A DNA stretch of 58,395 nucleotides from Raillietiella orientalis (GCA_036172245.1 JAYWIR010000155.1:1-58395), one strand, 5' to 3'. Shown: positions 1 through 57,659, numbered from the stretch's first letter. Notes: generated by a model from the sequence alone, not told the origin. Made by a program: numbers and translations.

Positions 1-300
1 CGCGTTGCAGGCTGCTACGGCGGGCGTGCCAGGACACGAGCTCGGCAATGGGGCCAGAGTCACCCTTTACGCTCTCAGCACCAACTCATAGTAGGTGCTG
101 AAGAGCAGGGGGCTGAGGCTATCTCCCTGCCTTATGCCCCGCCGCTTTGGAACGCCATGCACCTTCTGACTGCTGAAAGAGACGGAAATTATCCCATGGC
201 GCCAGCAGGAGCGCAGGTAGTTGATCAAGGAGGGTGGGAAGCCCATGCGACCCAGGAGCTCCAACAAAAGCCCCTGGTCAACACAGTCGAACGCCTTGTG
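1..300 (-). pseudogene. Host non-LTR ORF2 fragment (RT domain), interrupted at HKAFD by element A1
   Basis: Minus strand encodes HKAFDCVDQ...RRGIRQGDSLSPLLF (RT motifs). Homology stops abruptly at 300. Confidence 0.9.
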
Positions 301-394
301 CGCTCCAGGGTGGACGTGTTTTCTCGGTGCCCCTCGTGCCAGGAAGTCTCCCCCAGTTCAAGCGTCGTGTGGTTCGGTGGTCGATCAGGCAGCG

Positions 395-2069
395 ATGCCT
401 GACGCGACCACCAGGGATGGCCAGGGGGCAGCGGCAACGCCGCCCCCAGAGGCGATGGAGAGCCAGTGGGAGGAGGCAACGTCGCCCATAGAGGCGATGG
501 AGGTGGGGGCATCCGCCCCCACAGAATCGGTCCCCGCTTTAGCGCGGGCGTGGAGCGCCGCTGTGTCGGCTCCATCGCCCGCAGCCGAGGCGGAATTGTC
601 GGCCTAAGTGGAGGAGGCGTACATTTCTTCATTTTTCTACAAGGTAGGCAATTTATATTCTTTAGAGATCGCCCGCGCCTTCTAGAATGGCATGCGCGCT
701 CTCGATGTGAAAGAGGAAGAGCTTAGCGCTATGACCATCCGCAGAGGGGATCAGTACGTTAAGGTCATCTGCAAACGTGCAGAGCTGGCCCAACGACTGC
801 TTAAAACCCCCGTTGTGATGAAGACGCGCAGGCTTCTCCCCACTACGGCGGATCGCAGCATGGTGGTCCACCTGATAGGCGTGACCGCGCGAATGCGCAA
901 AGAACAGTTTCACGCCGCTTTGGAACAGTTTGGAACGGTCCACGCGCAGTGGACGAAAGTAAGTCCTTTCGAGGACTACACGTGGCTCCAACACGGCCTT
1001 ACTGCTACTCGCGTGACCGTTCGGGAGGGCTCCACTCTTCCCACAAACTGGTGGTCGAAGGCGAAACCGTCGACCTCTGGTATGTGGGGAAGCCGAAATA
1101 CTGTGGCTTCTGCAATACTTCGGGCCACCTCAAAAAGAGGTGCCCCAATGTGCAGTGACAAGTATGCGGCACAATGGGCCACACGAGGGAGGTGTGCCCA
1201 AAAGCAGCAGTGTGGGTGGTTACCAAGAAAAACCTTAAAAAACGCGCCCGGCTCCTGCAGAAAAGACTGGCGGCGAAACTGCCGCGAAGGCTGTGCCACC
1301 CGCGCCCAAGACCCAAGCCGCACCCGAGACCCTGGCGACCAACGCCGAAGAAGTTGAGGGAGCCGGCCAGGAGACTCAGTGGCAAGTGGCAACGGCCAAA
1401 AAATCAAAGAAGGAGAGGAGGATTGAAAAGAAAATCGCCTATCAACAGAAGATCAAAGAGCAGGGTAGCACGATAAATAAAGAGTGCAGCGTCGTTGTTA
1501 AACGCGTTCTCGATGTTGCCGAATGCTGCCGGAAAGAACTCGCCTCTACCGACGACCTCTTCTCTGTTGACACAGTCAATAGCGAATGGAGCGAGCCGGC
1601 GACAGCGTCCGTCATCGATACCACCATCGATGACGTAGCCTTCGCGCGAGCCGCGGAGGAGCTGGCAGCCTCGTTGCAGCCAGAACCCTCCAAGGCTGGT
1701 AAGAAGGCCGTAAGGCGTCCGGCCTACCCTCAGGAGTCCCCCACTTCCGACCTCGAGGTGGAGGCCGGAAGCGCAGCCCCTGTTTCCACGGCACCGCGCA
1801 AGAAGGCTAGACGTAATTTCACAAGGCCTAGGAAGCTCGTCTCCCCCGTCGAAGGGGAAGAGTTGGCTTCCGCAAGCGAGGGTGCCATGAGCGTAAGAGA
1901 CTCTCTGGACCCGTCGCCCGAGAGACTCCCACGCGCGGACACGGAGAGGATGGAGGGGGTGGAGGACGAACAGGTGCATCAGGTGCCTGAGAACGCCAAA
2001 ACCCCCATGGACATTCCGCCCGCCTCGCAAGAGGAGGGCTCTCCCACACCTTAATCTTCCCAGCAGTAA
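395..2069 (+). pseudogene. A1 ORF1, gag-like zinc-knuckle RNA-binding protein (stops and frameshifts)
   Basis: CGFCNTSGHLKKRC knuckle followed by a second degenerate knuckle. Pieces lie in ORFs 221-607, 692-1357, 949-1158 and 1293-2054. The in-frame TAA at 2067-2069 overlaps the ORF2 ATG. Confidence 0.85.
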
Positions 2070-5000
2070 TGCCGGGAATCTCCTCCCGCCGTCGTCTGCG
2101 CATCGCCGTTTGGAACGTGAACGCCATGACAGACGCCGGCTGGAGACGAGACATGGTCGCCCTTCTCGAGTCCTACCACCTTGCGCTGCTGCAGGAGATC
2201 CACGTGATCTCTGCAAAACAAGCGCAAGAGATCGAACGCATCTCCGGAGAGTGGCTATGGTACAGGTGTGGGAGAGCGAAGGGTTGCGGTGTCTCCTACC
2301 TGCTTCGGCCAGTCGTCGAGGCCGCGGCTCGGGGCGTGCGGTTCGACGATCACGGTCGTGTCGGCCAGCTGACTCTCAGGTGGTCCGACTCGATCGATCT
2401 GATCGTCACGAACGTGCACGCACCGAGCGGCGCGGACCTGATGACCAGGAGGGCGAGGAAAGAGTTTTTCCTTGCCCTCCATCGCGACTGGTTGACCGAG
2501 GCAGGCGTGCGGAATGCCCATCTGGTTGCAGGCGATTTTAACGTTCGTCTGAAACCGCATGGGCCGAATCACGAGCGTGACCTGGTCAACGAGGTGTGCG
2601 CGGCGGTGCACACTTGTAATTTGTTGGCCAGTGTACCAGGGATGGAGGACAACATCGATCACGTGTTCCTTGACGAACACCTGTGCACTCGTGTGGGCAG
2701 GCGCTGCAAGTTGCCGTGCGAGTTGTCCGACCATCGACCAATCGTGTTTGAAATCCATCCGCGCGAGAGGGGCCCCCCCTCGTCAGCGTGGCGTTTGCCA
2801 AGGGACTGGCAGAAGCTCCCGGACGCGACGGAACATCTCCGCACGTTTATACGGAGCTTTAGGATGCAGACATTTCAGGATTGGGACCGCTTTAAACGGT
2901 CGGTCCAGGAGTTCTGCGACCAGTTCCCACTGCGCCGCCTACCTGCAAGATTTGGGGACGGGTTACGTAACGAACGGGCCTATCTGCAGGCTCGCCGTTA
3001 CGCCAGGATCCCCGACATCCGCAGGCTGGCGGAATACAAAGGGGGAGCCGAAAGGCAATCCTGGCTCTCAGGATCAGACAGCTTGCTGGACGACCAGGGC
3101 CGGGAGCATTCGGCACCCGCTCAGATCCGCGGTTTGCTGCGGCGTTTTTACTCCTCCTTGTACGCAAGAACGCCTCCCGAGCGGAATTTCTCACGAATCC
3201 TGCTTTCGAAAGGCGCTCCTGCGATCTGTAAAGAGGAGAAAAAGTCCGTCGACGAGTCTTTCACGATGGGCGAGATCATCTCGGCCATCGGAAAGCTCAA
3301 GAGGCAAAAGGCTCCAGGGGAGGACGGCCTGTCCGCGGAGTTTTATCAAACTAACGCGGCTGAACTAACCCCCCTGGTACATCAACTCACCTTGCTGATA
3401 CGCGAGACAGGTGACGTTTCCGCCTCGTTTCGTTCGGCAAAGGTGCGGCTTCTCCCTAAGGGAGGAGATCTGAGGAGCATGAACAACTGGCGTCCCATCA
3501 CAATAGTGAATGCGGATGCCAAGTTGATAGCTAAGGTTTGGGCTGAGCGTTTGGGACGGGTTGCAAACGCCTTCATCAGCCCGGAACAGACGTATGCTGT
3601 TCCGGGGCGAAGCATGGAGGCGAACCTGTTCCACGCTTCCACCTGGCTAGGGCTCCAACACGAAAGCGGCTTGATGCGAACAGGGAATTCGGGTAGTCCG
3701 TCATTCATGCGACGGATGTTCAAATGGTGGAGGGAGCACTTGCGGTCGCTGTCGACTTGCGAAAAGCATTCGATTGCGTAAACCAGAATCTGCTGCTGAA
3801 GCTTTTGGAACGCTTGGGCTTCCCGGCCTCATTATTAACCTATCTGCGCTCTAGCTGGCGCGATTCGCAAATCAATGTAACTTTCAGCGGGAATATTGTT
3901 CACGGCGTGCCGGTGCGACGTGGGATCCGGCAAGGAGACAGCCTGAGCCCCTTGCTTTTCAGTACCTACTTTGAGTTTGTACTGAGAGCGTACAGGGAAA
4001 CTCTGGCGCACCTGCCGCCTGAATGCGCCGGAACGCCTGCGGTTTCAGCATATGCAGACGACCTCCTGCTACTGCTCTCTATGTCCACCCCGGCTTCGGC
4101 GGTCGAGAAGTTCTTCGAAATGCTGAATCGAGGAACCGGGCTTACGGTGAACAGGGCGAAGTCGTCCGTGATAGCAGTTGGTGCGGCGTGGGCAGGGCAG
4201 CAGCACTGGTTCCGTTTGGGGATCCTCACGGTGAGGTACTTCAAGTATCTTGGTGTGCCGTTGTTGGACTACTCCCCTGCGGAAGCGTGGTCCGGCTGCC
4301 TTCAAAAAGTAGAGACGGCGATCAACCCGCTCCGAGGCGGCAGGTTTTTCCTGCCTGAACGGGCCGCGGTTTGGAACATGTTCGCGGCTCCTGTCCTCCG
4401 TTCCCTGCTGCTTGTTTGCCCCCCCACCGAAAGGATCAAAAAGCGGACGAAGGTCCTCCTCCGTATCGCCGTTTGGGGCAACAAGAGGCCCCTAGTCCGC
4501 CTGAAGGACTTGCGCGCTCCGTGTCGGGACTGTGGTCTCGGCCTCCTTACATTGGAGCGGCTGGAGCTGCATTTCCAGTTCTGGATTTTGGCACTTGTGC
4601 CGGAGTTGTGGTGCACCGGTTGGTGCGTCCCTGCACTTCTCCTCCTCCAGCAAACCACCGGCAAGACGGGACTTACGTCGTTTCTTGCACTCCATCGAAG
4701 CCGCATCAACCGATGTGGGCTTCAGCTACGGAGGGTGGTTGCGCTGGCAAGGAGAAATCAAGGATGGATCACCTGTCTCCCCGCGAACGGTAGTGCCTGG
4801 TTGCAGAAAACCGTTCGTACGTGGGGACAGTTCGGCATGCAACCCTCCCATCAGGAACGAAGGTTCCTGTTTGGGTGTTACAGAAGTTGCACGCTCCGTG
4901 AGATCCTGGAGGATCATAAGAAGAGAGCGTGGTCAGGAAGAACCCTCCTCGCTGCTGCGCTGGACTCCCTAGTGGAACATCAGGACAGCGATGCTGCGGC

Positions 5001-5515
5001 GAAGTGGGAGGTTACAATCAAAATCTCCGGGAAGGAGAAGAAGCAGAGAGAGTGGAAGACGGGCCAGCTAACTGATGCTGCAACCCCGAGTACGCCTCCT
5101 AATGGACTTCTGCGCTGGGGAGCGCTGCTGTATGTTCCGATTAAACATGTGAAGTGGCCCCCGATTCCTATGAACACTTTCATCCTCCCCCTAAAATGGC
5201 AACAGTTTCCCGTTGCAGCACTGGGGACTACCCTGCAACGCCCGTCGACACCACTGGACTTGGGGAGCGGTGGATCCCAATTGTGTAAGGTGCGGGGAAC
5301 GGGAGTCCCTCCCGCACCTCCTAGTGGATCGTGATGCCCTTCGGCCCCTTTGGTTCCGCTTTGCCGCGGCCATCGGTATCCCTTGCAGCAACCCCAGGGA
5401 CGCACTAAAAGCCTTCTTCGTTGCCGACGCCCTGCGGCCAGCGTCCTCGATAGCAGCCTTGTGCTGCCTTCGAGGGATCGTCGCCGCCTGGAGCACGGCG
5501 ACGGGAGGACAGAGA
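2069..5515 (+). pseudogene. A1 ORF2: APE endonuclease, reverse transcriptase, C-terminal zinc finger (frameshifted)
   Basis: APE motifs WNVN, LQE, AGDFN, IDHVF, SDH. RT motifs KAPGEDG, WRPIT, DLRKAFD, GIRQGDSLSP, YADD, KYLG. Zinc finger CVRCGERESLPHLL. Frameshifts near 3720 and 5210. Confidence 0.92.
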
Positions 5516-6361
5516 GAAGATGATGAGCGGCTGGACCATGGGAGAGTTGACAGATGCAACGACCCCTAGTCTCCAGCCGCGTGGATTCAGAAGATGGGGC
5601 GAGCTGCTCGGCATTCGATTGGATGACCTGAAGTGGCCCCCGGTTCTACTTGGATCCAGGATTCTCCCCCTGAAGTGGCAAGAATCGGCGCTTCTGTGGC
5701 TGCATTGGGGTCTACCCTGCAACGCGCGCCGCTTCCACTGGACGCGGTGAAGAGTAAATCCTGCGTGTGCCAGGTGTGGGAAGCGGGAGTCGCTCTTATA
5801 CCTCTTAGTTGAATGCCATGCCGTCGAGATTCTTTGGGATCGTCTGAAAACGGCCCTCCGGATACCGGATGGTGGCAATGTTGAATGTATCTTCAGTCTT
5901 GTCTTCGTGCGGGACGCCCTCAGTCCAGCCGCAGCCCTGGCAGCACTTTGCTGAATTCGTGGTATCGTGGCGGCCTGGAGTGATAACGAAGATGAAGACT
6001 GCATCGTGAGGGACGTCATCGAGTGTGCTTCTCGCTTCCTGCAGAGAGCTACCCGATGGCCCCACCTAGGAAAGCTGAAAATGGAACTAGAAGGCATCCT
6101 GCAAAGGATGGGCGCTCCCAGCAGTTTTCTGTGATGTCTTCCCGGCCCTCCAAACTTTTTTTTTTTTGTGGTATGTTTTTCTGTTCTAGTTTATTTTTGT
6201 TTTTTCCCCCATCCCCCTCCACTGCCGAGAAGAGCCACACCGGGCTGCGTCCCGGTGTCCCGGCAGTTCCGGCATTCCGTGGCCGTCAGTGGGGCCTTGT
6301 ACCACGTTCTGTATTGCCCGTTGAAATGTTTTTTAATAAACGTTTCGGCGTATCCGGGTGG
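5516..6361 (+). mobile_element. B-type ORF2 C-terminus plus 3' UTR and terminus, fused to A1
   Basis: A second copy of the KWPP/LKWQ/CARC region resembles B3 from 19220 onward. It is followed by a T-rich 3' UTR and an AATAAA-hairpin end at 6335-6361. Confidence 0.8.
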
Positions 6362-6380
6362 CATCGCCGAATCCCTTGGC

Positions 6381-7160
6381 GAGTGGACGTGTTTTTCCTT
6401 CGCTCTCGAGTGAGTTAACAGGAAGAGGTTTTTTCTCTGTGTGTGTTCGTGTGGAACATCGTTGGTGTGCGATGGCAGCGATGTCTGAGGACACCACAAT
6501 AGAGGTAGGTGTGGGGAGGCTTGCCCTCCCTTACAGCCTACAGAATCAGAAGCGTCCGCCCCGGAAGCGCCCTCGCCGCCCAAGGCGAGGAGCTGGAGCG
6601 CCATGGTGGCCGCGCCGAGCGCGGAAACTAAGGTTGAGATGGCGGCCTACCGTTCAGCTGGGTACAAGCCCAGCTTGCTGTACCAGGTAGGTTTCTTATT
6701 TGATGGAAAAACGGCAAGCGCGTTTTCGAAAGCGCTCCAAAACGCCGGAGTTAAAGAACAAGATCTTCACGGCCTGTCCGTTCTCAGCGGAGGTCAGCGA
6801 GTCGAGGTGGTGTTCAAGGAGATCACCTTGGCTCAAAGTCTGATCACCAACCCGTTGAACGTCGACGGCTGCAAGATCCTGCCGGTGACGATGGACCGCT
6901 CCGTGGTGGTCCATTTCACTGGAATCACGAGTTGTATAACTCGCTCTGCGGTAGAACAAGAACTTCGAAAGTTCGGCGAGGTGCTCGCGCTGTGGCCTGA
7001 GCCAACAATCTTTAAAGGCTTCAATAGCCATTTCGGAGGCCAGGCTGAAGCGCGGGTAACCGTTAATAAGGACTGTGGGCTTCCCCACTAGCTGGAGGTC
7101 GCGGAAGAGGGCGTGGACCTCTGGTACGTGGGAAAGCTTCGGTATTGCGACTACTGCGAC
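6381..7160 (+). mobile_element. Copy B1: 5' UTR and N-terminal ORF1, truncated at the first zinc knuckle
   Basis: GGACGTG at 6385. ORF 6603-7091 (GYKPSLLYQVG...DRSVVVH) is homologous to the other ORF1s. Confidence 0.85.
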
Positions 7161-9437
7161 CTGACCTAGACGCGAAGCGAATAGCCCGACAAGCAAATTG
7201 GCGTCCGTATTCACAAAAGTTATCAGACGCCAGTTGTTCAGATTTCTGAGATCTCCTCCTTTCGAAAGAAGCGTCACTCTGGCTGTCGGAAAGGAGGCGG
7301 GAACATCGCATTCGTCTCCGATCAGCCTGATCAACTTAAGCAGCAAGGGTTCCAGCTTTTCTGCGAAGCTCTAAAAGAACTCCGCGGGCAAGCCGTCTTC
7401 CCCAGGAGCTTTCCACCTCTTGAGCCTTTTGATACCGGGGAGAATTTCTACGGTGTTAAGATGCTCGTCGAGGCTTAACGATTATTCCTCCTTCGTTATC
7501 GAAGCATCAAACGGAAGAAAGCGTCGAGAGGCATCTTGATCTGAGGGCGCCGTGGAGTAAAGGGAATTATAATCACCACGCACGAGATTAAGTTCCGACG
7601 CCGGAGACGGACATTTCTTGCCGTGGCCGTCCAGAAAGCTGTTCAATACGGATTGCCATGCTTAAAGTTCGGGCCCGGCTCGGTAGTGGTCCAGGCGACG
7701 GACATCAGGGGTTCTCTCTTTCTGACGGGCCTGTCAATAGACTCGATGGTTGCAAGGACCATCGTCGAACCCTGGAGGCAGGCGTCCCAGAGAAAACTGC
7801 TCGCAGAACTCCCGGATCGAGGCCTTAAACAGGTCTTAACCCTCGAATACCGGGCCGAAGGTTGCAAGGGCCCTCGAGAAATCCCGGGGGCGGGCGGTTA
7901 AAGCGAACTGCTCGCAGAACATCCGGACGGAGGCCTTAAAAAGGTTTCAATTCCAAAGACTCTTGAGCGTGACGCCTTTCAGGAATTCATGAAGGTGTTC
8001 CTATGCTGCTGAGAGTCGCGTTCAGTCCCCCGGCACACGACACTCCCTGGATGGAGGTCTGTTGTTGCGAAACCTCATCTCGAAATTTAGCCGGGAATGG
8101 TCCGACAGCGTCGACGCGATCTTCCCCCGTTTGCCGGCCCGTGAACACAAGTGAGCGTCCAGGAAGACGTGGACGATGTTGCGGACAATTCTTTCACCTG
8201 CAAACAGGTTCAGCACACGCATGGCGCCGCAGAACTCGTTCATCGCGTTCTCTTGTGTTTCATGTTCACCAGTTCGCAGTCGAAGATTGAGAACTCCTGT
8301 TATCAGGTGAGCCTTTCGCACGTTCGTGTTCGCCACACAGTCGCGTTCCAGGGATTCAAGCAGCCTGGTACGGTTGCTATATCCCTTTTGACCGGTATGG
8401 GCGTACACATTCGTGAAGATCAGATGGATCGAGACGGAGCAGCCGAAAATCAGCTGAGCAACCCGATCGACGTCATCGAAGCGCACGCCTTTCACGGCAG
8501 CGTCGATGGCTGGCTTGACGAAGAACGCGACTGCGCAGGTGTTGCGGAGGCCGCATTGCCGGTACATCCCACCCCCCGCGATCGACTTGATCTCCTGGAC
8601 GTCTGCCGCGAAGATCACGTGGATCTCCTGCAGCCGGTCAGGTTGAGTTCATGCAAAGTGTCGGCTGTACCTCGCCTGTTACCGTCGTCGCGCACCCCGT
8701 TGACATTCCAACAGGCCGCGCGGATCCGACGGCGACTGGCGAGCCCACGTTGTACTCCGGGAAAAGTGGCAGTCCGGCGTCCGCCACCTACCAGGGCAAG
8801 ATGCTAGGTGGAGGAGGAGGGTCAGGTGGTGAAGGCACATAATCCCCCTCCTGCATGGGTAACAGCGCGCCGAGCGCTGTTACCGATGCAGGTGGGGTCG
8901 CACCTATCTGTTGACCCTCCTTAATGGAGGCGGGCTGTTCAGGGTCGGCGACTGCAGGGAGGACTTTACCTACCTGCTCACCCTTCACCATGGGGTGGCC
9001 TTCTCGACAACTTCGGAACGTTGGAATTCCTCCTTTGGGGTTCCCACGCTGGCGACGGCTTCCGTGTCCTCCTCCTCGCTGGAGGAGGGGAAGCACCTCC
9101 TGGGCTTCTGGGACTTGCGTTGCGACTTTCTAGGGGGTGCCTTGGAGGAGGAGGAGCTGCTTCCGGCATCTAGGATTAACTCACCTGAAGAGGCCTTCTT
9201 TGCAGGATCCGGCTTTCGTACGGCCTTGCGCGAGGGGTTCTCCCGCTCGGCCAGCGTCACCGCGAGCTCCTGTGCCGCCTCTGCCAATGCGACGTCCTCT
9301 ACTTCGAAGAACGCGTCGCGCAGCTCACCCTCTGTGTAAACCGGAGGTTCGCAGTCGCGAGCCTTGGGCGCAGCGGAAACGGCGAGGGGAGGCTCGTCGC
9401 TCCAGGTGGCAGCCTCGGGAACGGCGATGCGTTCGAT
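7155..9437 (-). mobile_element. Copy B2 internal fragment: ORF1 C-terminus (9437-8755), APE and RT N-terminus (8750-7155), degenerate
   Basis: ORFs 8985-9443, 8022-8618 (APE) and 6696-7346 (KGGDLRNLNNWRLIT). Confidence 0.85.
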
Positions 9438-9885
9438 TTTCACCCAAATTTCTCCAAGTCGTTTATTGAAAAATAAACTTTATAATGAAATTATGTATGG
9501 CTGTGGGAATGCTCCAGCCAGAAGCGAAGAACCACAGAGCCTGTCAATTCACCGGTTCCTAGACCGGTATGGTCCACCAAGGCAGCAGGGGAAAAGGAAA
9601 AAACCAAAAACTAAACAAAAAAGACAAAGGGTGGGAGGGAACGGGAAGGGATCACTGATGCTGCTGGGGCCGCATCATGCCTCTCAGGATGCAGGCAAGC
9701 TCTTGTTTGATGTGAACATCCAGGTGGGGCCATCGCGACGCCCTCCTCAGGAATTGGGAGGCGCACTGGATGGCGTCCTGATCGCTAGGTCCTCCCGTCG
9801 CAGTGCTCCATGCGGCTACGATCGCACAAAGGCAGCACAAGGCTGCTATCGAGGACGCTGGCCGAAGAGCGTCGACAACGATGCA
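9438..9885 (-). mobile_element. A1-type 3' end fragment (ORF2 C-terminus, 3' UTR, terminus)
   Basis: Encodes DALRPASSIAALCCL...ASRWPHL. A degenerate AATAAA-hairpin end lies at 9467-9438. Confidence 0.85.
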
Positions 9886-11479: not shown

Positions 11480-11493
11480 CTCCGGAATCTCCA
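11480..11493 (+). repeat. Target-site duplication of A2 (left copy; right copy at 17027-17040)
   Basis: Exact 14-bp direct repeat CTCCGGAATCTCCA. Confidence 0.95.
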
Positions 11494-11706
11494 TTGAAAC
11501 CCGGGTGCGCCGGGACGTTCATTCTCACGAATAAACTTATACAATCTGTGACTGGACCAGTAGTCCAGCCACGCCCTGGAAAGATATAGCCTGCCGGGCT
11601 ACCGGTGCGCAGACCGGCGCGGTCGACCTCGGCAGCAGAGGGGAGGGGGAACGAAACAAAAAGAAAACAAATAAGAAACAAAAATCAGGGAGGGAGCGAA
11701 AAGATA

Positions 11707-38181: not shown

Positions 38182-38211
38182 AATAAACGCCCCGGCGTGA
38201 CCGGGTGATAA
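38182..38211 (+). terminator. Conserved element 3' terminus: AATAAA followed by a CCCGG-N5-CCGGG hairpin and a 2-4 nt A tail (representative copy)
   Basis: Ten recognisable copies occur at element ends. A role in 3'-end formation or RT recognition is inferred, not shown. Confidence 0.6.
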
Positions 38212-38220
38212 ATTTCAATC

Positions 38221-46343: not shown

Positions 46344-46700
46344 CCGCACGCCAACACGGGTCAGTTCATCGTTGAACTGATTCCCGTCGCGCGCAGAAAG
46401 AAAACCACTCACCTTATATCGGAGAGCAGGTCTATAGCCTTGGGCTACGTATGCCCGCAACTCCGACTCGTCGAGTGGTTTCCCTTTGACGGCTGCTGTG
46501 GCAGCAACGTCAGCAAAACTCTTAATTGACGAGAAAGACGAAGTGGAGGCGGCCGTAGGTTCCGCGATTGCAGATCCGGATGCTGTTCCTCCAACTTCAG
46601 TAGCTTCAAGTTGGGTCGACATCGTCGTCAAAATGTACGACGCCAAGATGAAGCGGATGAAAGCACGGAGACGAGAGCGAAGAAAAACACGTCCGCACTC
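46344..46700 (-). mobile_element. Copy C3: 5' end and start of ORF1 only
   Basis: Near-identical to C1 32306-32668 (MSTQLEATEVGG...VGVRE). Fused to the A1-type 3' portion. Confidence 0.9.
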
Positions 46701-49011
46701 GATTGAAATCTCCCGCTATCAGGTGAGCCTTTCGCAGGCTCGTGTTCGCCAGCCAGTCGCGCTTCAGGGATTCAAGCAGCCGATTACGGTTGCTGTATCC
46801 CTTTTGACCGGTTGGGGCGTACACATTCGTGACGATCAGATCGATCGAGTCAGCCCAGCCGAGAATCAGCTGACCGACCTGACCGTCGTCATCGAAGCGC
46901 ACGCCCTTTACGGCAGCGTCGATGACCGGCTTCACGAAGAACGCGACCCCGCAGGTGTTGCGGAGGCCGCATCGCCAATACAACCGACACCCCGGGATCG
47001 TGTCGATCTCCTGGACGTCTGCCGCGGTGATCACGTGGATCTCCTGCAACAGGGCCAGGTCGAACTTTCGCAGGGTGTCGGCTGTATCTCGCCTGTTACC
47101 GTCGTCGCGCAGCCCGTTGACATTCCAACATGCAGCGCGAATCCGACGGCAACTGGCGTGCCCAGGTGTTAGTCCTGGGAAAACGGCGATGCTGCGTCCG
47201 ACACCTGCTGGGGCGCGACGCTAGGTGGAGGAGGAGGGGGGTCAGGTGCTGAAGGCACCTGGTCCCCCTCCTCCATCGGTGCCGGCGCGTCAGCCGGATC
47301 ACCCGCACGTAGAGTCGCGCCTACCTGTTCGCCCTCCTCCATGGGGGCGGGCTGTTCAGGGTCGGCGCCTGCAGGGGACACTTCACCTTCCTGTTCACCC
47401 TCCCCCATGGGGGAGGCCGGATCGACGGCTTCCGAGCGTGGGAATTCCTCCTCCGAATTTCCCACGCTGGCGACGGCTTCCGTCTTCTCCTCCTCGCTGG
47501 TGGAGGGGAGGCGCCTCCAGGGCTTCTGGGACTTGCGTCCCGACTTCCTGAAGGGTGCCTCCGAGGAGGAGGATGTGCTTCCGGCCCCTAGGTCTAACTC
47601 ACCTGTGGGGGCCTTCTTCGCCGGAGCCGGCCTTCGCACGGCCTTGTGCGAGGGGTTCTCATGCTTGGCCAGCGTGACCGCGAGCTCCTCCGCCGCCTGC
47701 GCGAACGCGGCGTCCGCGGCTTCTACCGCCGCTATGTCGCGCGGCTCACCCTCTGTGTAAACAGAGGGTTCGCCGTCGCGAGCCTCGGGCGCAGCGGAAA
47801 CGGCAAGGGGAGCATCGACGCTCCGGGTGGCAATCTCGGGAACGACGATTCGTTCCAGTGCCAGCGTGCACTCGCGCAGAGTTTTCGAGCGTGGACCGGG
47901 TGTTTTCGGCTTACCGGCCGTGTTGCGCTCTTTGCTCTCAGCAAGTGGAAGTTTCCTTGGCTTTCTGGCCTCTACAAGCTGCCATCCCTCTTCGCCTTTC
48001 ACCGTTTCAGAAGTTTTATCCTCCGGCTTACGCGCCGGAGGTTGAGGTGTTGGCAGCTTGTGCTGGCCCTTTTCTACTTAAGGTCCAGAGACCTTTGAAG
48101 CACGTTTCCCCTGCGCTTTTTTCGCGGCAGGGAGAACCTGTGTGGGGCATTTGGGACACACGCGCCGAATGTGGCCCCGCTCCCCGCACAAATGGAATTG
48201 TATATTGGGACACCTTTTACATAGGTGTCCCACGGTATCACAATGCCCGCAATACCAGGGCTTCCCTACATTCCACAGGTCGACGTTTTCTTGCGCCACC
48301 TGTAGTTTGTGAGAAAGCCCACAGTTCTCCCGTACGGTGACCCGCGCTGCAGCCTGCCCACCCAAAAGGCTATCGAAGCCGTCGAAAATGGAGGGTTTCG
48401 GCCATAGTGCGTGCACCTCACCGTACCTTCTTAATTCCTCACCAACCGCTGACAGCATCATGCGGCTGGTAATGCCAGTCATGTGGACCACCACGGAGCG
48501 GTCCATTGATACTGGCAGGATCTTGCGGCCGTCTACGTTCAGCGGCGCATGGATTAGGCGGTGAGCCGAGGTGACATCTTTGCAGACCACCTCGACCCGC
48601 TGCCCGCCGCTGAGGACGGAGAGGCCGTCCAGATCCTTCTCGGTAACATTCGCGGCCTTCAACGCTTTGCTGAAGGCGCGCGCTGTCCGGCCGTCGAACG
48701 AGTTGCCTACCTGGTAGACAAGCGATGGCTTGTACCCGGAGGCCTTGTATGCTGCCATCTCCGCCAAGGCTTTTGCACTGGGCGCGGCCACCATGGCGCT
48801 CGATGTCCTCGGCGTGGCCGGGGATGATTCCGGGGCGGCTGCCCCTGCTCCAGTAGGCTGTGGGGGCGAACTAGTCTCCCCCACTCCCACCTCCATCGCG
48901 GTGTCCTCTGGCGTCGTGGCTATTAGACACCGACGATGTACACAAAACACCGCACACAAGAAAGCGCTTTCCTACTACCCTTTAAGGAGTGAAGGAAAAA
49001 CACGTCCTCCA
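46701..49011 (-). mobile_element. Copy B5: 5' UTR, ORF1 and APE up to AGDFN
   Basis: GGACGTG at 49007-49001. ORFs 48078-48959, 47169-48002 and 46606-47049. Confidence 0.9.
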
Positions 49012-50455
49012 ACTGGCCGTAAAGGGGCTGGCTGCAACGATACAGCAAGCTCCTCAGCCGCACGCTCGAAGGCGGCGTCATCGATCACGGTCACGATGAC
49101 GGACGCTTCCGCCGGTTCGTTCCCCACGCTGTTGACATTTTTAACAGTGGGTTGCTCGTCGGTAGCAGCGATTTCTACCTTGAGGCGTTTGGCGGGGACG
49201 CGTTCCACGACGACGGTGCATTCTTTGAAATTCTCGCTAACCTGCTGTTTTTTATTTTTGTAGGCGAGCTTTTTTTCAATTTGTCGTTCTTTCTTTGACT
49301 TTTTTTTCTTTTTGGCTGTGACTTCTTGCCATTCCGACACCTGACCGCTTTTGTCGATCTTTTCGGCATTGGTTGCCGGGGTGTCGGCTGAGGCCGGGAC
49401 CACGGGAGTGGGTGGTACAGCTTGAGCGGCAGCCTTCGCCGCCAGTTTTTTCTGTAACAGCCGCGCGCGTTTTTTTAGGTTCCTCGCGAAAACCACGCGC
49501 ACAGCGGATTGTGGACACACTTCCTTCGTGTGGCCCATTCTCACGCATACCACGCACTGTACGTTGGGGCACCTCCTTTTGAAGTGTACCGACGTGTTAC
49601 AGAAGCCACAGTATTTTCGCTTCCTTACGTACCAGAGGTCGACGCTTTCTCCGCCGACCACCAGTTTGTGGGGAAGGGTAAAGCCCTTGCGAACAATCAC
49701 ACAAGCAGCCGTGAGGCCGCACTCAACTGTGGTATAGTCCTCGAAAGGACAAGGCTTGGTCCATACTGCATGGACCGTGCCTTCTTTTCCCAACGCGGCG
49801 CGTAACTGTTTTTTATGCATCCGCGTGGTAACTCTTAAAAGGTGGACCACCATACTGTGGTCCGCCGTAACGGGAAGGAGCCTGCGTGTCTCCATTACCA
49901 CGGGGGTTATATGCAGACGTTGGGCCAGATCTGCATGTTGGCAGATCACCTCTACGTACTGCCCCCCGCTACGAATGGTCATAGCGCAGAGCTCCTTCTC
50001 TTTAACATCGAGAGCGCGCATCCCCTTCGAAGAAACGCGCGCACTCTCAGAAGAATGCAAATTTCCTACCTTGTAGAATAGTGATGGGTGATACCCCTCT
50101 TCCACATAGGCAGATTATTCCTCCGCGGCTGCAGTCGATGGCGCCGACACGACGACGCCGTGCGCTCGCGCTGCAGCAAGGACCGGTTTTGTGGGGGCGA
50201 ACGCCCCCACCTCCTTCGCCACTGAAGGCGACGTTGCCGCCGCCTCCTGGCACTCCACCTTCTCTACAGGCGAAGTTGCCGCCGCCACCTGGCACTCCAA
50301 TTTCTTCAGGAGGCGGTGGCAACGTCGCCTTCTGACACGCACTGGTGGTCGTGTCACGCATTCCTGCCTGATCGACCACCACCACACACGAAGCCTACAC
50401 CTAGGGACGGTTCCCGGCACGAGGAGCACCGAGGAAACACGTTCGCTCTAGCCGA
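49012..50455 (-). mobile_element. Copy A4 (A1-type): 5' UTR and ORF1, truncated by B5
   Basis: ORF 48975-50105 is homologous to A1 ORF1. The 5' end GAACGTG at 50444-50438 abuts the RKAFD codons of D1. Confidence 0.9.
50233..50316 (-). repeat. 42-bp tandem duplication in the A4 ORF1 N-terminus
   Basis: GTTGCCGCCGCC(T/A)CCTGGCACTCCA occurs at 50233 and 50275, encoding ECQVAAATSP / ECQEAAATSP. Confidence 0.8.
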
Positions 50456-52620
50456 CGTAAAGCTTTCGACTGCGTCGACGAGCCGCTCCTTCTGGAGCTC
50501 CAGCAACGCTTGGGATTTCCGGCCGTCTTCCTGGCCTACCTGCGCTCCTGCTTGCGCTTCGCTCTAATAAACATCTCTTTCAGCGGACGGCACGTGTACG
50601 CCGTGCAGGTTCGGCGTGGCATAAGGCAGGGTGACAGTCTGAGCCCCTTGCTCTTCAGCATCTACTTCGAGCTGGTGCTGAGGGCATACAGGTAGAGTCT
50701 GGCAACCCTGCCAAGCTCGTGTCCCGGCACGCCTGCCGTGTCGGCCTACGCCGATGACCTTCTGCTCCTGCTCCCCGGGTCCACCCTGGCGTCGCCGCTC
50801 CAAGATTTCTTTGAGTTGCTGCGCCGCGGGACAAGCCTCGAGGTGAACAGAGAGAAATCTTCCATCGTTCCAACATCAACACTACTTTTAAACAATACGG
50901 CGTAAGCCGGACGGTCGGACTGGATCCGCTTAAGGATACCCACGGGCAGGTGCTTTAGTTACCTGGGCGTTTCGTTGAGGGACTTCTGCGTTGCAGAAGC
51001 CTGATCCGACCGTCTCCAAAAGGTGGAGTTGGCGATCGGCCCGTTCCGGAGCGGCAAGTTTTATTTGCAGGAGCGGGCCGCGGTGTGGAACGCGTTCGCG
51101 GCCCCCCTCCTTCGCCCCCTACTTTTCGTTTGCCCCGCCCCTCCCATGATACAGAGACGGACCGAAGCCCTCTTGAGGACTGCTCATTGGGGAACAGCGA
51201 TGTCGCGAGACCGATTCAAAGACTTGTGCGCTCCACGCAGGGATGGTGGCTTAAGCCTCCTTACGTTGGAGCGCATCCAACTACAGACAACACTTCGGAA
51301 GTTAACCCTTGCGGCTAGCTTATGGATGACGCTATGGTGCGATCCGGCACGGCTCCTCGCCAGAAGAGCGACCGGCTGCGAAGGATTGTCCTCGATCCTC
51401 GTGGCCTACCAGCGCAGCCTCTCCAACTGTGGCCCCGATTTGCGCCAGATGGTCGCCCTGATCAGGGAGAATACCTGGATCTCTTGCATCCCCGCGAACT
51501 GCACTGCCTTACTTTAAGAGTCAGCTTCCGCGTGGGCTAAGATCAACGGCACGAGCGAGGCGGAATACAACTGCCTACGACGAGGACCGTACGCTCGACA
51601 GCCGCTGCAGGAGATTATCAACATGCCCCGGAAGTTTCTGTGGGCTTCTTTCAGCCCCCTTGCCCCCGTTCTGTCCTCGCTAAAAAACACTAGGAGCAGC
51701 AACGAGCGGGCATCGTGGGAAGTGTCCTGCCTCATCCGAGGCAGGAAAAAACCTTTAAAGGCGTGGACGACTCGGGAGCTCACGGACCCTGCCACCCCGA
51801 GCGTCCCGCCTCACGGACTTGCGCGCTGGGGAGTGCTGCTCGTGATACCTCCGGAGGAGGTGAAGTGGCCCCCAGCGTGTTGGGATTGCGACACACTTCC
51901 GTTGAAGTGGCAGGAGACGGCGTTGCTATTTCTGCACTGGGGACTGTTAAGCAGAGCACACCTGTCTCACTGGACACTGGGGAATGTGGATGCCCGCTGT
52001 GTCGAGTGCGGAGAAAGAGAAACCTTCCCGCATCTCACCCTCGAGTGTGTCGCCCTGGATGGACTCTGGAGTCGAATCGCCCCAATCCTCCATCTTCCAG
52101 TAGGCGACCCTAAGGAAATTTACCGTCGCCTCTTTCTGCGTGACGGCCTGCGCCCCGCTGCGTCTCTAGCAGTCCTTTGCTGCGTGCGCGGCATTGTGCA
52201 AAGGTGGCACGCTAGAAGAGGGCCAAGATGCAGGGACGCCATCCACTGGACGACGATCTCTGTTTAGAGACGGCGACAAGGTGGCGTCTACCTTTCACGA
52301 TAAAAACTGAACTTGACTGCATCCTCAACAGGATGCGGAGGACCGAACCAGGCGCTCAGTGATCCCTTCCCTGCCCCCCCCTTTCCCCATACAACTGTTT
52401 CCCCCCTCGTTATCGCTCTTTTTGTTTGTTTTTGTTTTAGTTTTCCCTTCCCATGCGTCTCGGGAATAAACCTAACCGGTCTATGCACCGGCATCCGACA
52501 CGTCAAGCAAGGTGGGAGAACCCAGTGTTTCCCCACAGAAAACATATTTTTAAAGACTATATTATCTAAGTTTTGTAAAAAATTAGAATAATAAATGCCC
52601 CGGCATATCCGGGTGACAAA
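50456..52620 (+). mobile_element. Copy D1: ORF2 from RKAFD to the 3' terminus
   Basis: RKAFDCVD, GIRQGDSLSP, YADD and CVECGERETFPHLTLEC. Hairpin terminus at 52590-52620. Confidence 0.9.
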
Positions 52621-54407
52621 CGTCGGCCGCGCCCGAGCACTCCAGGCCCTGGTCGTCCAGCAGACAAGTTGCTCCTGACTGCCACATCTGGCGCTCGGCC
52701 TTGGCCTTGTACTCCGCAAGGTACCGGACGTCCGGGCATCGGGAGAATTGGCGAACCTGCAGAAACTCTCTGCTGTTGGCCACGCCTTCCCCGAAGCCAC
52801 GGAAAAGCAGGCGCAAGGGGAACCGGCTGCAGAACTCGGGGACAGATCTTTTCAGATCGTCCCAGTCCTCGAGCTCGCGAACGGCCAAGGTCCGGAGATG
52901 CTGGCGGAGGTGCTCCGCAGCCACCGAATTTCTCAGCCAGTCGGCCGGCAACCTCAAGACGTGCGTCGGAGGGCCCTTGCCAGGCGGGAGTAGCTCAAAT
53001 TCCAGCTTGTATTGGTCGGAAAGCTCGGACGGCACGGGACCTCTTCGACCCACCCGACAATGTAGGTGATCGTCGAGGAACACATGGTCTGGCAAAGCAC
53101 GCATACCGGTATCGTGGGTCAGCAAATTCGAGGCTACGGACATGGAGGTGGGTTCCTCGCCCCGTCCGGCGAGGCATCGGCCGGGAGCACGGCGGATGAG
53201 GTAGCGAAAGCGCTTCCTGTCACCGCTGAGCCGCTCGCGGCTGGCTTGGTGGAGTCGAGGACCATTGCCTCGGGCTCCGAGGAGCATCGGGAACCGTTCC
53301 CGTCATAAAACTCTTGCCTGGCAAGTTTTGGCTTCCGCGCAGCTCTGGCGTTGACCGGGGCTTGGCGAGCCTAAGCGCTGCCCTCGAACTCTACCTCGGA
53401 GTCCGAACTGCGCGCGCGCTGCGGGCGTTTTGTTTGCCTCCTTTTTTGCTGGCAGCCCGGAGCTGGTCCAGCACTCTTACAGAGTGCCTTCGTTGACGAT
53501 CCCTCTTTCGGGATCACGACTTCGGCAGCTCCCCTCTCGTCGCGGGTGCTTGCGGCGGCGCGCGCGGCGGCAGCAGAGGGTTTTTCTTGCGCCTTCTTTG
53601 GCGCGCGGGGCTGCCTCTTCATCTCGCCTACCTTTTTGATTGAAAAGTGGGAAGGATCGTGCGGTTTTCTCTCCTTCTTCCTTCTTCCAACAAAGGTCTG
53701 GCCATCCTCGCCTCCTTCCGGTTTGCCTCGGTTGGGCGCGAGGGCTTCCAGGGTCCTTCGAATCCTTTCCAAGGCATCGGATACGGCGATGGAGGCCAGT
53801 GTCTCCTTCACCACGTCTGCCTTCCGCACCTTCTTACCGGAAGGTGCAAGCAGAGTGGCGCGCGACCCCTTTTTCGACCCTCTGGTGGTCTTTCCGGGCG
53901 TGTCACCGCTATTTCGCTCCGGAGCGAAGGAGGATGGAAGCGGCTGTTTTGCAACTTGCTCGATGTTATCGGCGGGCTGGGTCGCTCGGGGCTTCACTAA
54001 AGCAGTTTGGAGAAGCTTCTTGTCATTTCGCGCGGGGTTTTGTGGAGCATTGCTCCGAAAATCACCTAAGCAAGCGGACTTTTCACTTCTCCGCTGCCAA
54101 TCCTCGTTCGCGCCGGATTTCTTCCCCGACGACGGGGCGGATGGAGTCGGCGCGGACGGCGATGTTGCGGGGAGGTTTTCCGCCCTCCTTATTCGTTTTA
54201 GTTTGGCGCACTCGTTAATCGAGTGGCCGAGCAGCTTTCAGTATCGGCAACCGCGTGTTGGGCACTTCCGCGGACGGTGGCCCTCCTTCCAGCAGTTGCC
54301 GCAAGCAAGGGTTTGCCCGGCAAACCGGAAATAGACGACGACGTCACCGAGGAGGATCTGGGAAGGCATGAGCCTCCGGTCGTCCATGGTGAAGCGCGCC
54401 GTGGCGA
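52621..54407 (-). mobile_element. Copy C4 (C-like) fragment: ORF1 knuckles and tail fused by deletion to late APE/linker
   Basis: CGNCWKEGHRPRKC and CRY*KLLGHSINEC on the minus strand near 54200-54305. ORF 52583-53287 contains DHVFLDD...ELSD...ELEDWDDLKRS. Confidence 0.8.
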
Positions 54408-56524
54408 TTTACAACCGGATGTGCGGGGCATTTATTTCTTTGAAATGAAAATACATGAAATGTCGCGTGGCGAACTCGAAGGTTCTTTACTCCAATACAG
54501 CTTGCTGGTTACCGGCTTCATGCCGGAGACGTCCTTTCGACGCGCGGGGATGAGAAATAAAGAAAAACAAAAAGAAACAAAAAGTTCAATTGTGGGGGGG
54601 AACAAATGTTGTAGGGATGGGAGGGCGGGGAAGGGATCACGGTGCGCGTGGACAGGTCATCTAGATCCTATTCAGGATCCGCACGAGCTCAGTCCTTTCA
54701 GCGCCTAAGTGGCGCTACTTGCAGACACTGCGTGCGAAAAGGCGAGTCCATCGTAAGGCGCTGCCAGTTGGCTGACGTCTTCTTCTGGTGGCGTTCCGAG
54801 CCGCCACGATCCCTCAAATGCAGCAGAGGATTGCTACAGAAGCGGGGTAGGACAGGGCGTCACTACAGAAGAGGCGCCTGCAAACGTCCTTGATGCCGCA
54901 TCCGCGCAAGTCCAGGATCGTCGTTAGGCGATCCATAAAGGGCTGATGGAACTGCATCCAATGAGAAGGTGGGGAAAGGTCTCTTTTTCCCCGCCCCGGT
55001 CGCACTGGGGATCCACAGCCCCCCCGGGTGGTTTGGTACAGGCGTGGTTTACAGGGTAAACCCCAATGCATTACAAGCAACGCCACCTCCTGCCATTTGA
55101 GGGGGAAGGACCCACTGTTCCAGGACGCTGGGGGTCACTTCATCTCCTCCGGAGATATTCCGAGTAGCACGCTTCAGCGTGGAATTCCGTTGGGCGGGAC
55201 ACTCAACGTTGCAGCGTCAGCTAGCTGCCGAGATGTCCACCTCTTTATCGATTGTGTCCTGCCACCTATGGTGCAGGACACGGTCCATTTCTTTTGCTCG
55301 CTACTGTCCCTGGCACTCACAAGGAAGGGCAGCACTGGAGCGAGAAAGGGTTATCAAGGCCCACAGCAGCTTCTCGTGGGACTGCACGATCTCCTGCAGC
55401 GTCCAGCGAGCATGCCTTTTCAGGCAAGTGTTCCTTGTTCCCGCCGGAACGTGGATCTTCTCCCAGGTGGAGACTGACTCGTACAACCAGGCAGAGTAGT
55501 TCCCTGGATGGCAGCAGATCCAGGCGTTTTCCCGGACCGCAACGAAGATGCGTCGCAGCATAGAGCCACAGTGTGCTCTACTGCAGACGCGCGCAGACAG
55601 AAATGACAAAAGTCCGCCGGATCCGCAGGCTCGTTTGGCCAGGAGGCGTGCTGGAACGCAACAAGGCGTGTTCCACAGTTCTGCCGCGAGAGCGAGAGTC
55701 CTAAACTGTAGTTGCACTTCCATGCGCTACAGCGTAAGAACGCCAAGTCCTCCGTCCTTACGTGGAGCGCACAAGTCTTTGAGCCTCACACGGGACCTCC
55801 CTTTGCCCCAAAGGACTGTCCTCAGGAGGCCCGCTGCTCGTTTACGGATGAAGTAAGGGACGGGGCACACAAAAAGTAGGGGGCGAAGAAGGGGGGCCGC
55901 AAACGCGTTCCACACCGCGGCCCGTTCCTGCAAGTAAAGCTTGCTTTCTTGGAACGGACCGGTCGCCAACGCTGCCTTTTGGAGACGGTCGGACCAGGCT
56001 TCTGCTGCGCAGAATTCCCCCATCGGAACGCCTAGGTACTTGGAGCACCTGTCCGTGGGGATCCCCAAGCGGATCCAATCCGACCGTCCAGCCCACGCCG
56101 AGCCGGTACAAGTTATGGACGACTTCGCCCTGTTCACCTCCAGGCCCGTCCCGCGGCGCAGCAACTCGAAGAATACCTCGAGCGCACTCGCCAGGGTGGA
56201 CCCGGGAAGCAGCAGCAGAAGATCGTCTGCATAGGCCGACACGGCAGGCGTGCCGGCACACGAGCTCGGCAGGGTTGCCAGAGTTACCCTGTATGCCCTC
56301 AGCACAAACTCGAAGTACATGCTACAGAGCAAGGGGCACAGGATGTCAGCTTGCCGGATGCCGCGGCGCACTGGCACGCCGCACACGTGTCGGCCGCTGA
56401 AACCAATATTTATGTACGCGTTGCGCCAGCAGGAGCGCAGGTAAGACTGGAGAAAGGACAAGAAACCCAGGCGTTCCAGGAGCTTTAGATAGAGATCCTG
56501 GTCGACGCAGTCGAACGCCTTGTG
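54408..56524 (-). mobile_element. Copy D2: ORF2 from HKAFD to the 3' terminus
   Basis: ORF 55727-56857 includes HKAFDCVDQ...YADD...KYLG. Terminus AATAAATGCCCCGCACATCCGGTTGTAAA at 54436-54408. Confidence 0.9.
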
Positions 56525-57659
56525 CGCTCTAGGGTGGACGTGTTTTCTCGGTGCTCCTCGTGCCAGGAAGTCCCCTTTCAGTGCAAGCGTCGTGTGGTTC
56601 GGTGGTCGATCAGGCAGCGATGCCTGACGCGACCACCAGGGATGGCCTAGGGGCAGCGCCAAAGCCGCCCCCAGAGGCAATGCAGAGCCAGGGGGCGGCG
56701 GCAACGTCGTCCCCGGAGGCGATGGAGGTGGGGGCATCCGCCCCCACAGAATCGGTCCCCGCTGCAGCGCGGGCGTGAAGCGCCGTTGTGTCGGCGCCAT
56801 CGCCTGCAGCCGAAGCGGAATTGTCGGCCTATGTGGAGGAGGGATACAACCCCTCATTGTTCTACAAGGTAGGCAATTTATATTCTTTGGAGAGCGCGCG
56901 CGCCTTCTCGAAGGGCATTCGCGCTCTCGATGTGAAAGAGGACGAGCTTAGCGCTATGACCATCCGCAGCGGGGGTCAGTACGTTGAGGTCATCTGCTAA
57001 CATTCAGAGCTAGCCCAACGACTGCTTAAAACCCCCGTTGTGATGAAGAGGCGCAGGCTTCTCCCCACTACGGCGGACCGCAGCATTGTGGTCCACCTGT
57101 TAGGCGTGACGGCGCAAATGCGCAAAGAACAGGTTCGCGCAGCTTTGGAACAGTTTGGAACGGTTCACGCGCAGTGGACGAAAGTTAGTCCTTTCGAGGA
57201 CTACACGGGGCTGCAACACGGCCTCACTGCTGCGCGCGTGACCGTTTGAAAGGGCTGCACTCTTCCCCACAAACTGGTGCTCGAAGGCGAAACCGTCGAC
57301 CTCTGGTATGTGGGGAAGCCGAAATACTGTGGCTTCTGCAATACGTCGGGCCACCTCAAAAAGAGGTGTCCCAATGTGAAGTGCCAAGTATGCGGCACAA
57401 TAAGCCACACGAGGGAGGTGTGCCCAAAAGCAGCAGTGCGGGTGGCTTCCAAGAGAAACTTTTAAAAACGCGCCCGGCTTCTGCAGAAAAGGCTGGCGGC
57501 GAAAGCTGCCGCGAAGGCTGCGCCACCCGCGCCCAAGACCCAGGCCGCACCCGAGACCCCATCGACCAACACCGAAGAAGTTGAGGGAGCCGGCCAGGAG
57601 ACTGGGAGGCAAGTGGCAACGGCCAAAAAATCAAAGAAGGAGAGGAGGATGGAAAAGAA
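56525..57659 (+). mobile_element. Copy A5 (A1-type): 5' UTR and 5' part of ORF1, truncated
   Basis: Closely colinear with 301-1433. GGACGTG at 56536, ATG at 56620, knuckles CGFCNTSGHLKKRC and CQVCGTISHTREVC. Confidence 0.9.

Follow-up and report, generated by a model that had tools for sequence, protein, structure and literature searches.

The 58,395-bp stretch of the Raillietiella orientalis assembly analyzed here (GCA_036172245.1, JAYWIR010000155.1:1-58395; hereafter, the window) contains several sibling lineages of long interspersed nuclear elements (LINEs) that are inserted into one another, and their junctions recur at the same nucleotides of different host elements: in the (H/R)KAFD motif of the reverse transcriptase (RT), in the linker that follows the endonuclease, in the GDFN motif of the apurinic/apyrimidinic endonuclease (APE), and at one spot in open reading frame 1 (ORF1). 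The reading that we favor, with a probability of about three in four, is that these copies arose by sequence-specific, target-primed insertion into sibling elements, and we propose endonuclease specificity as the cause. The anatomy of the elements, the recurrence of the junctions, the target-site duplications, and the independence of the events are shown by the sequence data.

Trees of the APE, mid-ORF2, and RT parts distinguish at least three sibling clades in the window: clade A (A1, A2, and A3), clade B (B1 to B3, with H1 as sister), and clade C (C1a, C1b, H2, and G). Elements D and D' stand apart in the trees as a pair known from the RT half alone and may be the 3' half of B-type elements.

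Four recurrent insertion sites

ORF2 of the element at 1991-5331 served as a ruler for placing host positions by tblastn, and every junction was read individually. An initial annotation made from the sequence had named eleven junction coordinates; self-BLAST clusters and the junction sequences identify all of them as true breakpoints between non-homologous parts of different elements (Table 1), and every mapped terminus adjoins another element.

The A1-type junctions that had been placed in the (H/R)KAFD motif of RT at 300, 45376, 50455, and 56525 were confirmed by sequence. The three full-length A1-type 5' ends (301, 50455, and 56525) each lie directly beside the H or R codon of the motif, with the host antisense, and one A1-type 3' end (45376) adjoins the last codon, that of D, in the HKAFD of B3; the 5' and 3' junctions together imply a duplication of 12 to 15 bp. 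KAFD aligns with residues 603-606 of human L1 ORF2p, three residues past D600, which we take to be the catalytic aspartate of motif A. The order and orientation of the parts would also fit a single element, now represented by B3 (29867-45375) and D (50456-52620), that was split by one A1 insertion, but the putative duplication then matches at only 10 of 15 positions, and with H2 in sense on one side and G antisense on the other, the outer flanks do not suit a single insertion.

At the linker site L(Q/E)^DW (the caret marks the junction), to which A2 and A3 had been assigned (11494 and 24774), both host flanks are present for each insert. The 3' ends of A2 and A3 attach at the same step, CA^GGACTGG and GA^GGACTGG, and both elements are antisense; A2 splits the B-like element H1 with an exact 14/14-bp duplication (11480-11493 = 17027-17040), and A3 (ca. 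24774-29722) splits the clade C element H2 with a duplication of 5 to 6 bp. The uninterrupted element G provides an empty site (52873).

The third site is the GDFN motif in the APE of B hosts, where the expected C1-type junctions at 32306, 38221, and 46700 were all recovered from the sequence. C1a and C1b stand in tandem and in sense at the GDFN of B3, with the 9-bp duplication ATTTCAATC at 32297-32305 and 38212-38220 and a copy with one mismatch at 44124-44132; C1c lies at the same GDFN nucleotide in B2 (46700), and B1, uninterrupted at 8285-8289, represents the empty site.

Lastly, B1 and B2 are inserted in sense into the ORF1 of A elements, and the positions of their full-length 5' ends (21794 and 49007, respectively) on this ORF differ by no more than ~2 nucleotides (nt). 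A B subgroup had been placed within the SLQPAP codons of this ORF; the shared spot in two A elements stands, but it is located ~10 nt after these codons rather than inside them. The junctions of B1 and B2 that were read at this site are all 5' junctions, as would be the case had a chimeric A-5'::B transcript arisen once and been retrotransposed as a unit, and the about equal divergence of the host flanks (70.0% identity) and inserts (75.7% identity) is in keeping with such an origin. Against this, the host remnant F13 shares 80.6% identity with the free element A1 but 70.0% with the other host, A1' (p = 0.03 on ~175 nt), and A1' has a normal full-length 5' end and occupies the usual A1 target in its own right; we consider a chimeric transcript improbable as the source of this one junction class.

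Evidence for independent insertions rather than copied composites

Shared junctions might also have been inherited, if a few ancestral composites of host plus insert had been copied by segmental or inverted duplication and had then decayed. The segments 49309-52035 and 57629-54967 do form an inverted pair with 71.6% identity over 2.7 kb, and host and insert are equally diverged in two of the three KAFD pairs and in the A-ORF1 pair. Comparison of flanks with inserts nevertheless gave very unequal divergence, with hosts far more diverged than their inserts, in the KAFD (D0/D'), linker, and GDFN classes. At KAFD, D0 and D' differ at 87 of 291 positions and A1 and A1'' at 93 of 1132 (70% versus 92% identity; p = 2e-19); at the linker, H1 and H2 differ at 400 of 848 and A2 and A3 at 1465 of 4884 (53% versus 70%; p = 8e-22); and at GDFN, B3 and B2 differ at 159 of 999 and C1a and C1c at 12 of 357 (84% versus 97%; p = 2e-11). 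A2 and A3 sit in hosts from different clades, H1 being B-like and H2 a member of clade C, and host and insert groupings are likewise incongruent at KAFD, where the closest hosts are D and D' and the closest inserts are A1 (in D0) and A1'' (in D'). The ratio of nonsynonymous to synonymous substitution rates (dN/dS) between lineages is 0.19 to 0.42 rather than ~1, which indicates that the elements were functional and under purifying selection while they diverged, rather than duplicates in decay. Values of 0.5 to 0.7 were obtained for young pairs within one lineage (C1a/C1b, X/A1, and A1/A1''), which are ~8 to 10% apart. Inheritance from copied composites is thus very improbable, and the recurrent junctions are best read as independent site-specific insertions. 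For the equally diverged KAFD pairs, independence would follow from dN/dS and tree incongruence only, and for the A-ORF1 class, it would follow from the B1/B2 dN/dS of 0.25 and the greater proximity of F13 to A1 than to A1'.

Mis-joining of repeats at conserved motifs during assembly is a concern in so repetitive a region. One public DNA sequencing run (X1), and no RNA run among those listed, contained related sequence, with 35% of sampled words shared; of the 490 related contigs of X1, 299 are less than 90% identical to the window and 6 are at least 99% identical, too few for an independent check of the assembly. At the junctions, however, non-homologous parts are joined, an element terminus (5' or 3') meeting the interior of a host that is often antisense, and mis-joins do not yield target-site duplications or empty sites, both of which exist here; an assembly artefact is therefore scarcely credible.

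Chance, target specificity, and reciprocity

We counted ~19 junction events, 10 of which fall at the four recurrent sites: A1, A1', A1'', and A1t at KAFD, A2 and A3 at the linker, the C1a/b tandem and C1c at GDFN, and B1 and B2 in A ORF1. Uniform placement of 19 junctions along a 5.5-kb host, in either orientation and with coincidence defined as ±2 nt, predicts 0.08 coincident pairs. We observed 9, or 6 should A1' and A1t represent a single insertion, and not one of 200,000 simulations reached 6. There are 72 occurrences of the hexamer GCGTTC in the window, but four of the five A1-type junctions lie at its KAFD copy, which implies recognition of a sequence longer than the hexamer; the fifth, that of X, is at CACTG^GAACGC, which resembles the KAFD target on the element strand, CAGTC^GAACGC.

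Insertion might instead be steered to the island by a chromatin or tethering factor, as has been proposed for centromeric LINEs, with the endonuclease contributing only a short and loose motif preference, and recurrence might then reflect the presence of few such motifs in GC-rich elements. Such targeting would suit a window made entirely of these elements, the singletons that constitute about half of the junction events, and the variable length of the linker duplication (14 bp versus 5 to 6 bp). We consider it unlikely, since GCGTTC and AGGACTGG, present 72 and 7 times, respectively, are each hit at one homologous copy, at the same nucleotide and in one orientation, and since the three A1 5' junctions are identical.

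The idea that the families parasitize one another reciprocally is supported by insertions of A elements into B, D, the B-like H1, and the C-like H2, of C1 into B, and of B into A; in addition, the C-like H2 and the B-like H1 have entered A elements, and B3, D, and D' have entered C-like elements. When 12-nt target windows were ranked for conservation among 3,047 cross-family windows, the KAFD target fell in the top 2.7% and the linker target in the top 4.6%, but the GDFN target reached only the top 26% (combined p = 0.014), so that the evidence for protein constraint as the property that is exploited is suggestive but not compelling. The A1 and C1 lineages differ from their targets at synonymous positions: in the KAFD motif of all three A elements, the alanine codon is GCA (3763, 13591, and 26299), versus GCG or GCT in the occupied hosts (297, 45364, and 56521), and the GDFN of C1 itself, GGGGACTTCAAC (34762 and 40674), differs from its target, GGAGATTTCAAT (32293 and 46713), at third codon positions only. 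We regard this as a hint of synonymous self-immunity in A1 and C1, and as a hint only because A2 and A3 contain the core of their own linker target.

A number of observations weigh against sequence-specific insertion or narrow its scope. All of the data come from one window that was picked for its appearance. Nine of the ~19 events are singletons, comprising B3 at residue 341 of H2, X in B1 ORF1, F3, H1 in X, D and D' at different places in G, B4, H2 in F13, and the break at 57659; with B3, B4, D, and D' at four other places and at no recurrent site, the B and D lineages are not uniformly site specific here. Two junctions are rearrangements rather than insertions, namely, the B4(+)/B1(-) junction (7155/7157) and a deletion through which C1c is now joined to A1t (46340/46346). 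The KAFD class comprises three or four insertion events, depending on whether B3 and D are one element, and equal divergence of host and insert was found for the D0/D hosts with A1/A1' (p = 0.32), the D/D' hosts with A1'/A1'' (p = 0.44), and the F13/A1' hosts with B1/B2 (p = 0.11). Sites with the target core also remain empty: linker sites of the CAGGACTGG type are present without an insert in G, A2, and A3, and C1a and C1b have no insert at their AAGGCGTTCGAC, which is identical to that of the occupied hosts. Finally, run X1 contains contigs in which a C1-like 3' end is followed by different sequence (a loose end at 38213 and a joint from 38212 to 47006); one such flank consensus has no match in the window.

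Anatomy and relatives of the elements

The window has a G+C content of ~58% throughout, and in self-comparison, ~89% of it is self-similar; the 6,423 bases (11%) that occur only once lie mostly in the fast-evolving second half of ORF1. The elements are 5 to 6 kb long, with an ORF1 carrying CCHC knuckles and an ORF2 composed of APE endonuclease, linker, and RT. A Pfam scan of 55 ORFs of at least 200 codons (E ≤ 0.001) placed Exo_endo_phos (PF03372; APE) above the cut-off in 6 ORFs and detected RVT_1 (PF00078) in 9, with 6 above the gathering score; when referred to the element map, APE and RT are located in the same element, as in LINEs. The zf-CCHC domain was found in B3 ORF1 (25.5 bits versus a cut-off of 20.8), and zf-RVT matches after RT scored 24.4 and 17.2 bits, both under the cut-off of 27.5. 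Among solved structures, human L1 ORF2p gave the best match to the linker and N-terminal part of RT (E = 3e-26, versus 3e-4 for R2); in the RT core, R2Bm and L1 score alike. The APE and RT domains and the match to L1 ORF2p thus point to APE-type LINEs of the L1/Tx1 kind.

Thirteen full-length 5' ends are present (A1, A1', A1'', A2, A3, C1a, C1b, C1c, B1 to B4, and H2), and full-length copies of all clades open with a conserved GGACGTG(T)nC motif (GGACGTGTTTTTC) that could be an internal promoter or a 5'-processing signal; an Rfam scan of the window returned nothing, hence no recognizable 5' ribozyme, and a tRNA scan was likewise empty. All clades also have a 3' module in common, consisting of AATAAA followed by a 5-bp GC inverted repeat, CCCGG...CCGGG (the CCCGGCGnnACCGGG hairpin, which was read directly as an inverted repeat), and most 3' ends are closed by a short tail (TGAAAATC in three A copies and TGATAA, TGACAAA, or TTTCAA in others). 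None of the 3' ends that were read (~10 copies) has a poly(A) tail, the flank adjoining directly. The shared module suggests stringent recognition of the 3' end by RT, and its AATAAA suggests that the organism uses an AAUAAA-type polyadenylation signal. Hallmarks of target-primed insertion are present in the form of duplications of 14, 9, and 5 to 6 bp, 5'-truncated copies (X and F3), and termini unlike each other.

Two further features of individual copies were noted. The 3' hairpin of X (9435-9470) reads CTTGG...TTGGG instead of CCCGG...CCGGG, and in the putative duplication at 45361-45375 and 50456-50470, mismatches are partly of the CG-to-TG/CA type; CpG decay at these places would accord with methylation of cytosines in the island. 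In A3, ~30 nt inside the 5' end, there is a long stretch rich in T and A (TTTATTTTTTTTTTTCTTTTTTC, as read on the strand of the element; 29660-29705) that A1 and A2 lack.

Relatives outside the window are distant with one exception. The closest database protein, a 619-amino-acid RT (P0016) from a 2,870-bp JGI metagenome contig, is 73% identical to the RT of A2, and its presence there would place the lineage in an environmental sample as well; in a search space of billions of proteins, all other relatives are ~25 to 37% identical. Eight loci detected in a metagenome scan are each 27 to 32% identical, too distant for a comparison of junctions. Among the protein homology hits, none was named Zepp (the best hit carried no name).

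Proposed mechanism and relation to known systems

We suggest that the APE of each lineage nicks a defined sequence lying inside the genes of sibling elements, that reverse transcription is primed at the hairpin-bearing, poly(A)-less 3' end, and that a second cut, whose offset is fixed in A1 and C1 but variable in A2 and A3, generates the observed duplications. The A1 lineage would cut ...GGCGTTC^GAC... (KAFD of RT motif A) and enter antisense; the A2/A3 lineage would cut (C/G)A^GGACTGG ((Q/E)DW of the linker), also entering antisense; C1 would cut within GATTTCAATC (DFN of the endonuclease) and enter in sense; and one B subgroup would enter A ORF1 at a single fixed spot. If targets exist only in such elements, new copies will land in old copies, so that an island made of transposons alone would grow while the targeted copies are disrupted. 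The part assigned to the endonuclease is inferred by analogy with R1/Tx1-type elements, the specificity of Tx1-clade elements being attributed to this enzyme (PMC4494074), and any benefit to element or host would likewise be an inference.

It is also possible, although we lean slightly against it, that the lineages form a closed guild in which each endonuclease evolved to cut the motif DNA of the others (KAFD, GDFN, or DW). Relatives would then be a renewable safe haven and at the same time competitors that are knocked out by each insertion, escape of a target would be limited to synonymous change, with which the codon differences of the A elements and C1 would agree, and Zepp- or centromere-type islands composed only of transposons would assemble themselves.

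Known targets of site-specific LINEs are the genes for rRNA, snRNA, and tRNA, microsatellites, telomeres, and a small number of transposon families, and self-nesting LINE clusters of green algae mark putative centromeres. R1/R2-type LINEs, which are specific for ribosomal DNA, insert with nucleotide exactness into a conserved multicopy target and display precise 5' junctions and tandem copies. The elements of the window resemble them in their exact insertion into conserved, multicopy, functionally constrained sequence, their precise 5' junctions, and their tandem copies, but their target is the catalytic-motif DNA of other retrotransposons and not a host gene, and their APE is of the L1 type, whereas R2 has a restriction-like endonuclease.

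According to PMC4494074, Tx1-clade LINEs target specific DNA transposons (Tx1L in Tx1D, Tx1-Mar in Mariner-N4_AMi, and Tx1-9_AMi in Harbinger) and long terminal repeat retrotransposons (Tx1-8_Crp and Tx1-4_AMi). APE-type LINEs at a fixed position of another transposon family and tandem double insertions are common to those elements and ours; in contrast, the targets in the window are sibling LINE lineages, possibly including the insert's own, and lie in coding sequence, and several lineages target one another reciprocally. Recurrent, sequence-specific insertion into a multicopy target is Tx1-like behavior and is not proof of membership in the Tx1 clade. The Zepp and ZeppL LINEs of green algae, which are of the L1 clade, target existing copies and form clusters (PMC3446292 and PMC8226300), and LINE-only, GC-rich islands built by insertion into existing copies are a shared feature. 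Zepp arrays consist mostly of 3' ends as a result of 5' truncation in the account of PMC8226300, whereas the window has 13 full-length 5' ends; unlike Zepp, its elements lack a poly(A) tail and comprise several diverged lineages with distinct fixed sites. Celine, a centromere-colonizing LINE of poplar, is described in PMC11288735 as residing mostly inside other transposons and as self-nested, each copy having a unique duplication and flank, which indicates regional targeting; insertions in the window are at fixed nucleotides.

Searches of full-text literature, in which the original Zepp papers were not included, yielded no description of several sibling LINE lineages homing reciprocally to fixed coding positions. 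Reciprocal homing of multiple sibling lineages to fixed nucleotides in the catalytic-motif DNA of one another would thus be new, and it would supply a sequence-level mechanism for the growth of LINE-only islands. It would amount to competition of transposon against transposon, comparable to homing elements in conserved active-site codons, and would provide three naturally occurring pairs of endonuclease and target with which to study the reprogramming of APE specificity.

Map of the window and minor observations

Table 1. Elements and terminal motifs in the window (positions counted from its first base)
Feature	Position (strand)	Remarks
D0, host RT fragment	1..300 (-)	Starts at H codon of HKAFD (300), leaves window at left end; tblastn orf2b residues 22-118 at 300 to 10
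A1, A clade, full-length 5' end	301..5510 (+)	ORF1 and ORF2 (APE and RT), one frameshift near 3700-3780; 3' untranslated region (UTR) broken at 5510
F3, 5'-truncated 3' part of divergent element	5511..6360 (+)	AATAAA and hairpin end; followed by 16-nt spacer 6361-6376
B4, 5' part of B-clade element	6377..7157 (+)	5' UTR and ORF1; junction with B1 not of target-primed reverse transcription type
B1, downstream part	7155..9434 (-)	ORF1 end, APE, RT to ORF2 residue ~525; GDFN 8285-8289 uninterrupted
X, 3' part, A1-like (90% identical to A1), 5' truncated	9435..9881 (-)	3' end in B1 ORF1 at CACTG^GAACGC
H1, left part, B-like	9882..11493 (+)	APE to linker residue 296; left duplication copy 11480-11493
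A2, complete, A clade	11494..17026 (-)	Antisense at linker site of H1
H1, right part	17027..19974 (+)	Right duplication copy 17027-17040; KAFD uninterrupted at 17940; hairpin 3' end 19974
X, 5' part	19975..20712 (-)	ORF2 C-terminal residues 282-503; H1 separates X 5' and 3' parts
B1, 5' part, full-length 5' end at 21794	20747..21794 (-)	In sense in A ORF1, ~10 nt past SLQPAP
F13, A1-like ORF1 remnant (residues ~72-152)	21800..22007 (-)	Between B1 and H2 insertions
H2, left part, C clade, full-length 5' end (GGACGTG...)	22008..24773 (+)	ORF1, APE to linker site
A3, complete, A clade	24774..29722 (-)	Antisense at linker site of H2; 5- to 6-bp duplication
H2, right part	29723..29866 (+)	ORF2 residues 291-341; ended by B3 5' end
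B3, left part	29867..32305 (+)	Full-length 5' end to GDFN
C1a, complete, C clade	32306..38220 (+)	In sense at GDFN of B3; range takes in duplication 38212-38220
C1b, second complete C1 copy, tandem	38221..44132 (+)	92.6% identical to C1a
B3, right part	44133..45375 (+)	After GDFN through HKAFD
A1t, 3' part of A1-type element	45376..46346 (-)	3' end adjoins HKAFD of B3; other end is deletion junction
C1c, first ~360 nt of C1 copy	46340..46700 (-)	At GDFN of B2
B2, full-length 5' end to GDFN	46701..49007 (-)	In sense in ORF1 of A1'
A1', 5' part of A1-type element (75% identical to A1)	49011..50455 (-)	Full-length 5' end adjoins RKAFD of D
D, host, RKAFD to hairpin 3' end	50456..52620 (+)	3' end antisense in G at ORF2 residue ~379
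G, C-clade fragment (ORF1 to ORF2 residue 379)	52621..54405 (-)	Between 3' ends of D and D'; linker site 52873 uninterrupted
D', host, HKAFD to 3' end	54406..56524 (-)	
A1'', 5' part of A1-type element (91.8% identical to A1)	56525..57659 (+)	Similarity ceases at 57659
5' start motif	301-330, 17000-17026 (-), 22008-22040, 29867-29900, 32306-32340, 38221-38255, 46670-46700 (-), 48975-49007 (-), 50425-50455 (-), 56525-56555	
3' ends with shared module	6330-6360, 9435-9480, 11494-11540, 19930-19974, 24775-24820, 38170-38211, 44080-44123, 45376-45420, 52575-52620, 54406-54450	

D (+) and D' (-) face each other (50456-56524), with their 3' ends in the two ends of G (52621-54405); the 3' end of D' lies in sense within G ORF1, and the flanks of both D' and D have a CGGC(C)GCGC string. 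The 16-nt spacer at 6361-6376 was considered as B ORF1 sequence next to the X insertion and was rejected, since only a 9-mer is shared and this 9-mer also occurs elsewhere. Beyond 57659, a point inside A1'' ORF1, the remaining 736 bases (57660-58395) resemble none of the elements, occur only once in the window, and lack a long open frame; they may represent an unrelated repeat or the border of the island. Within them, 57819-57855 matches high-depth contigs of a second run (X2).

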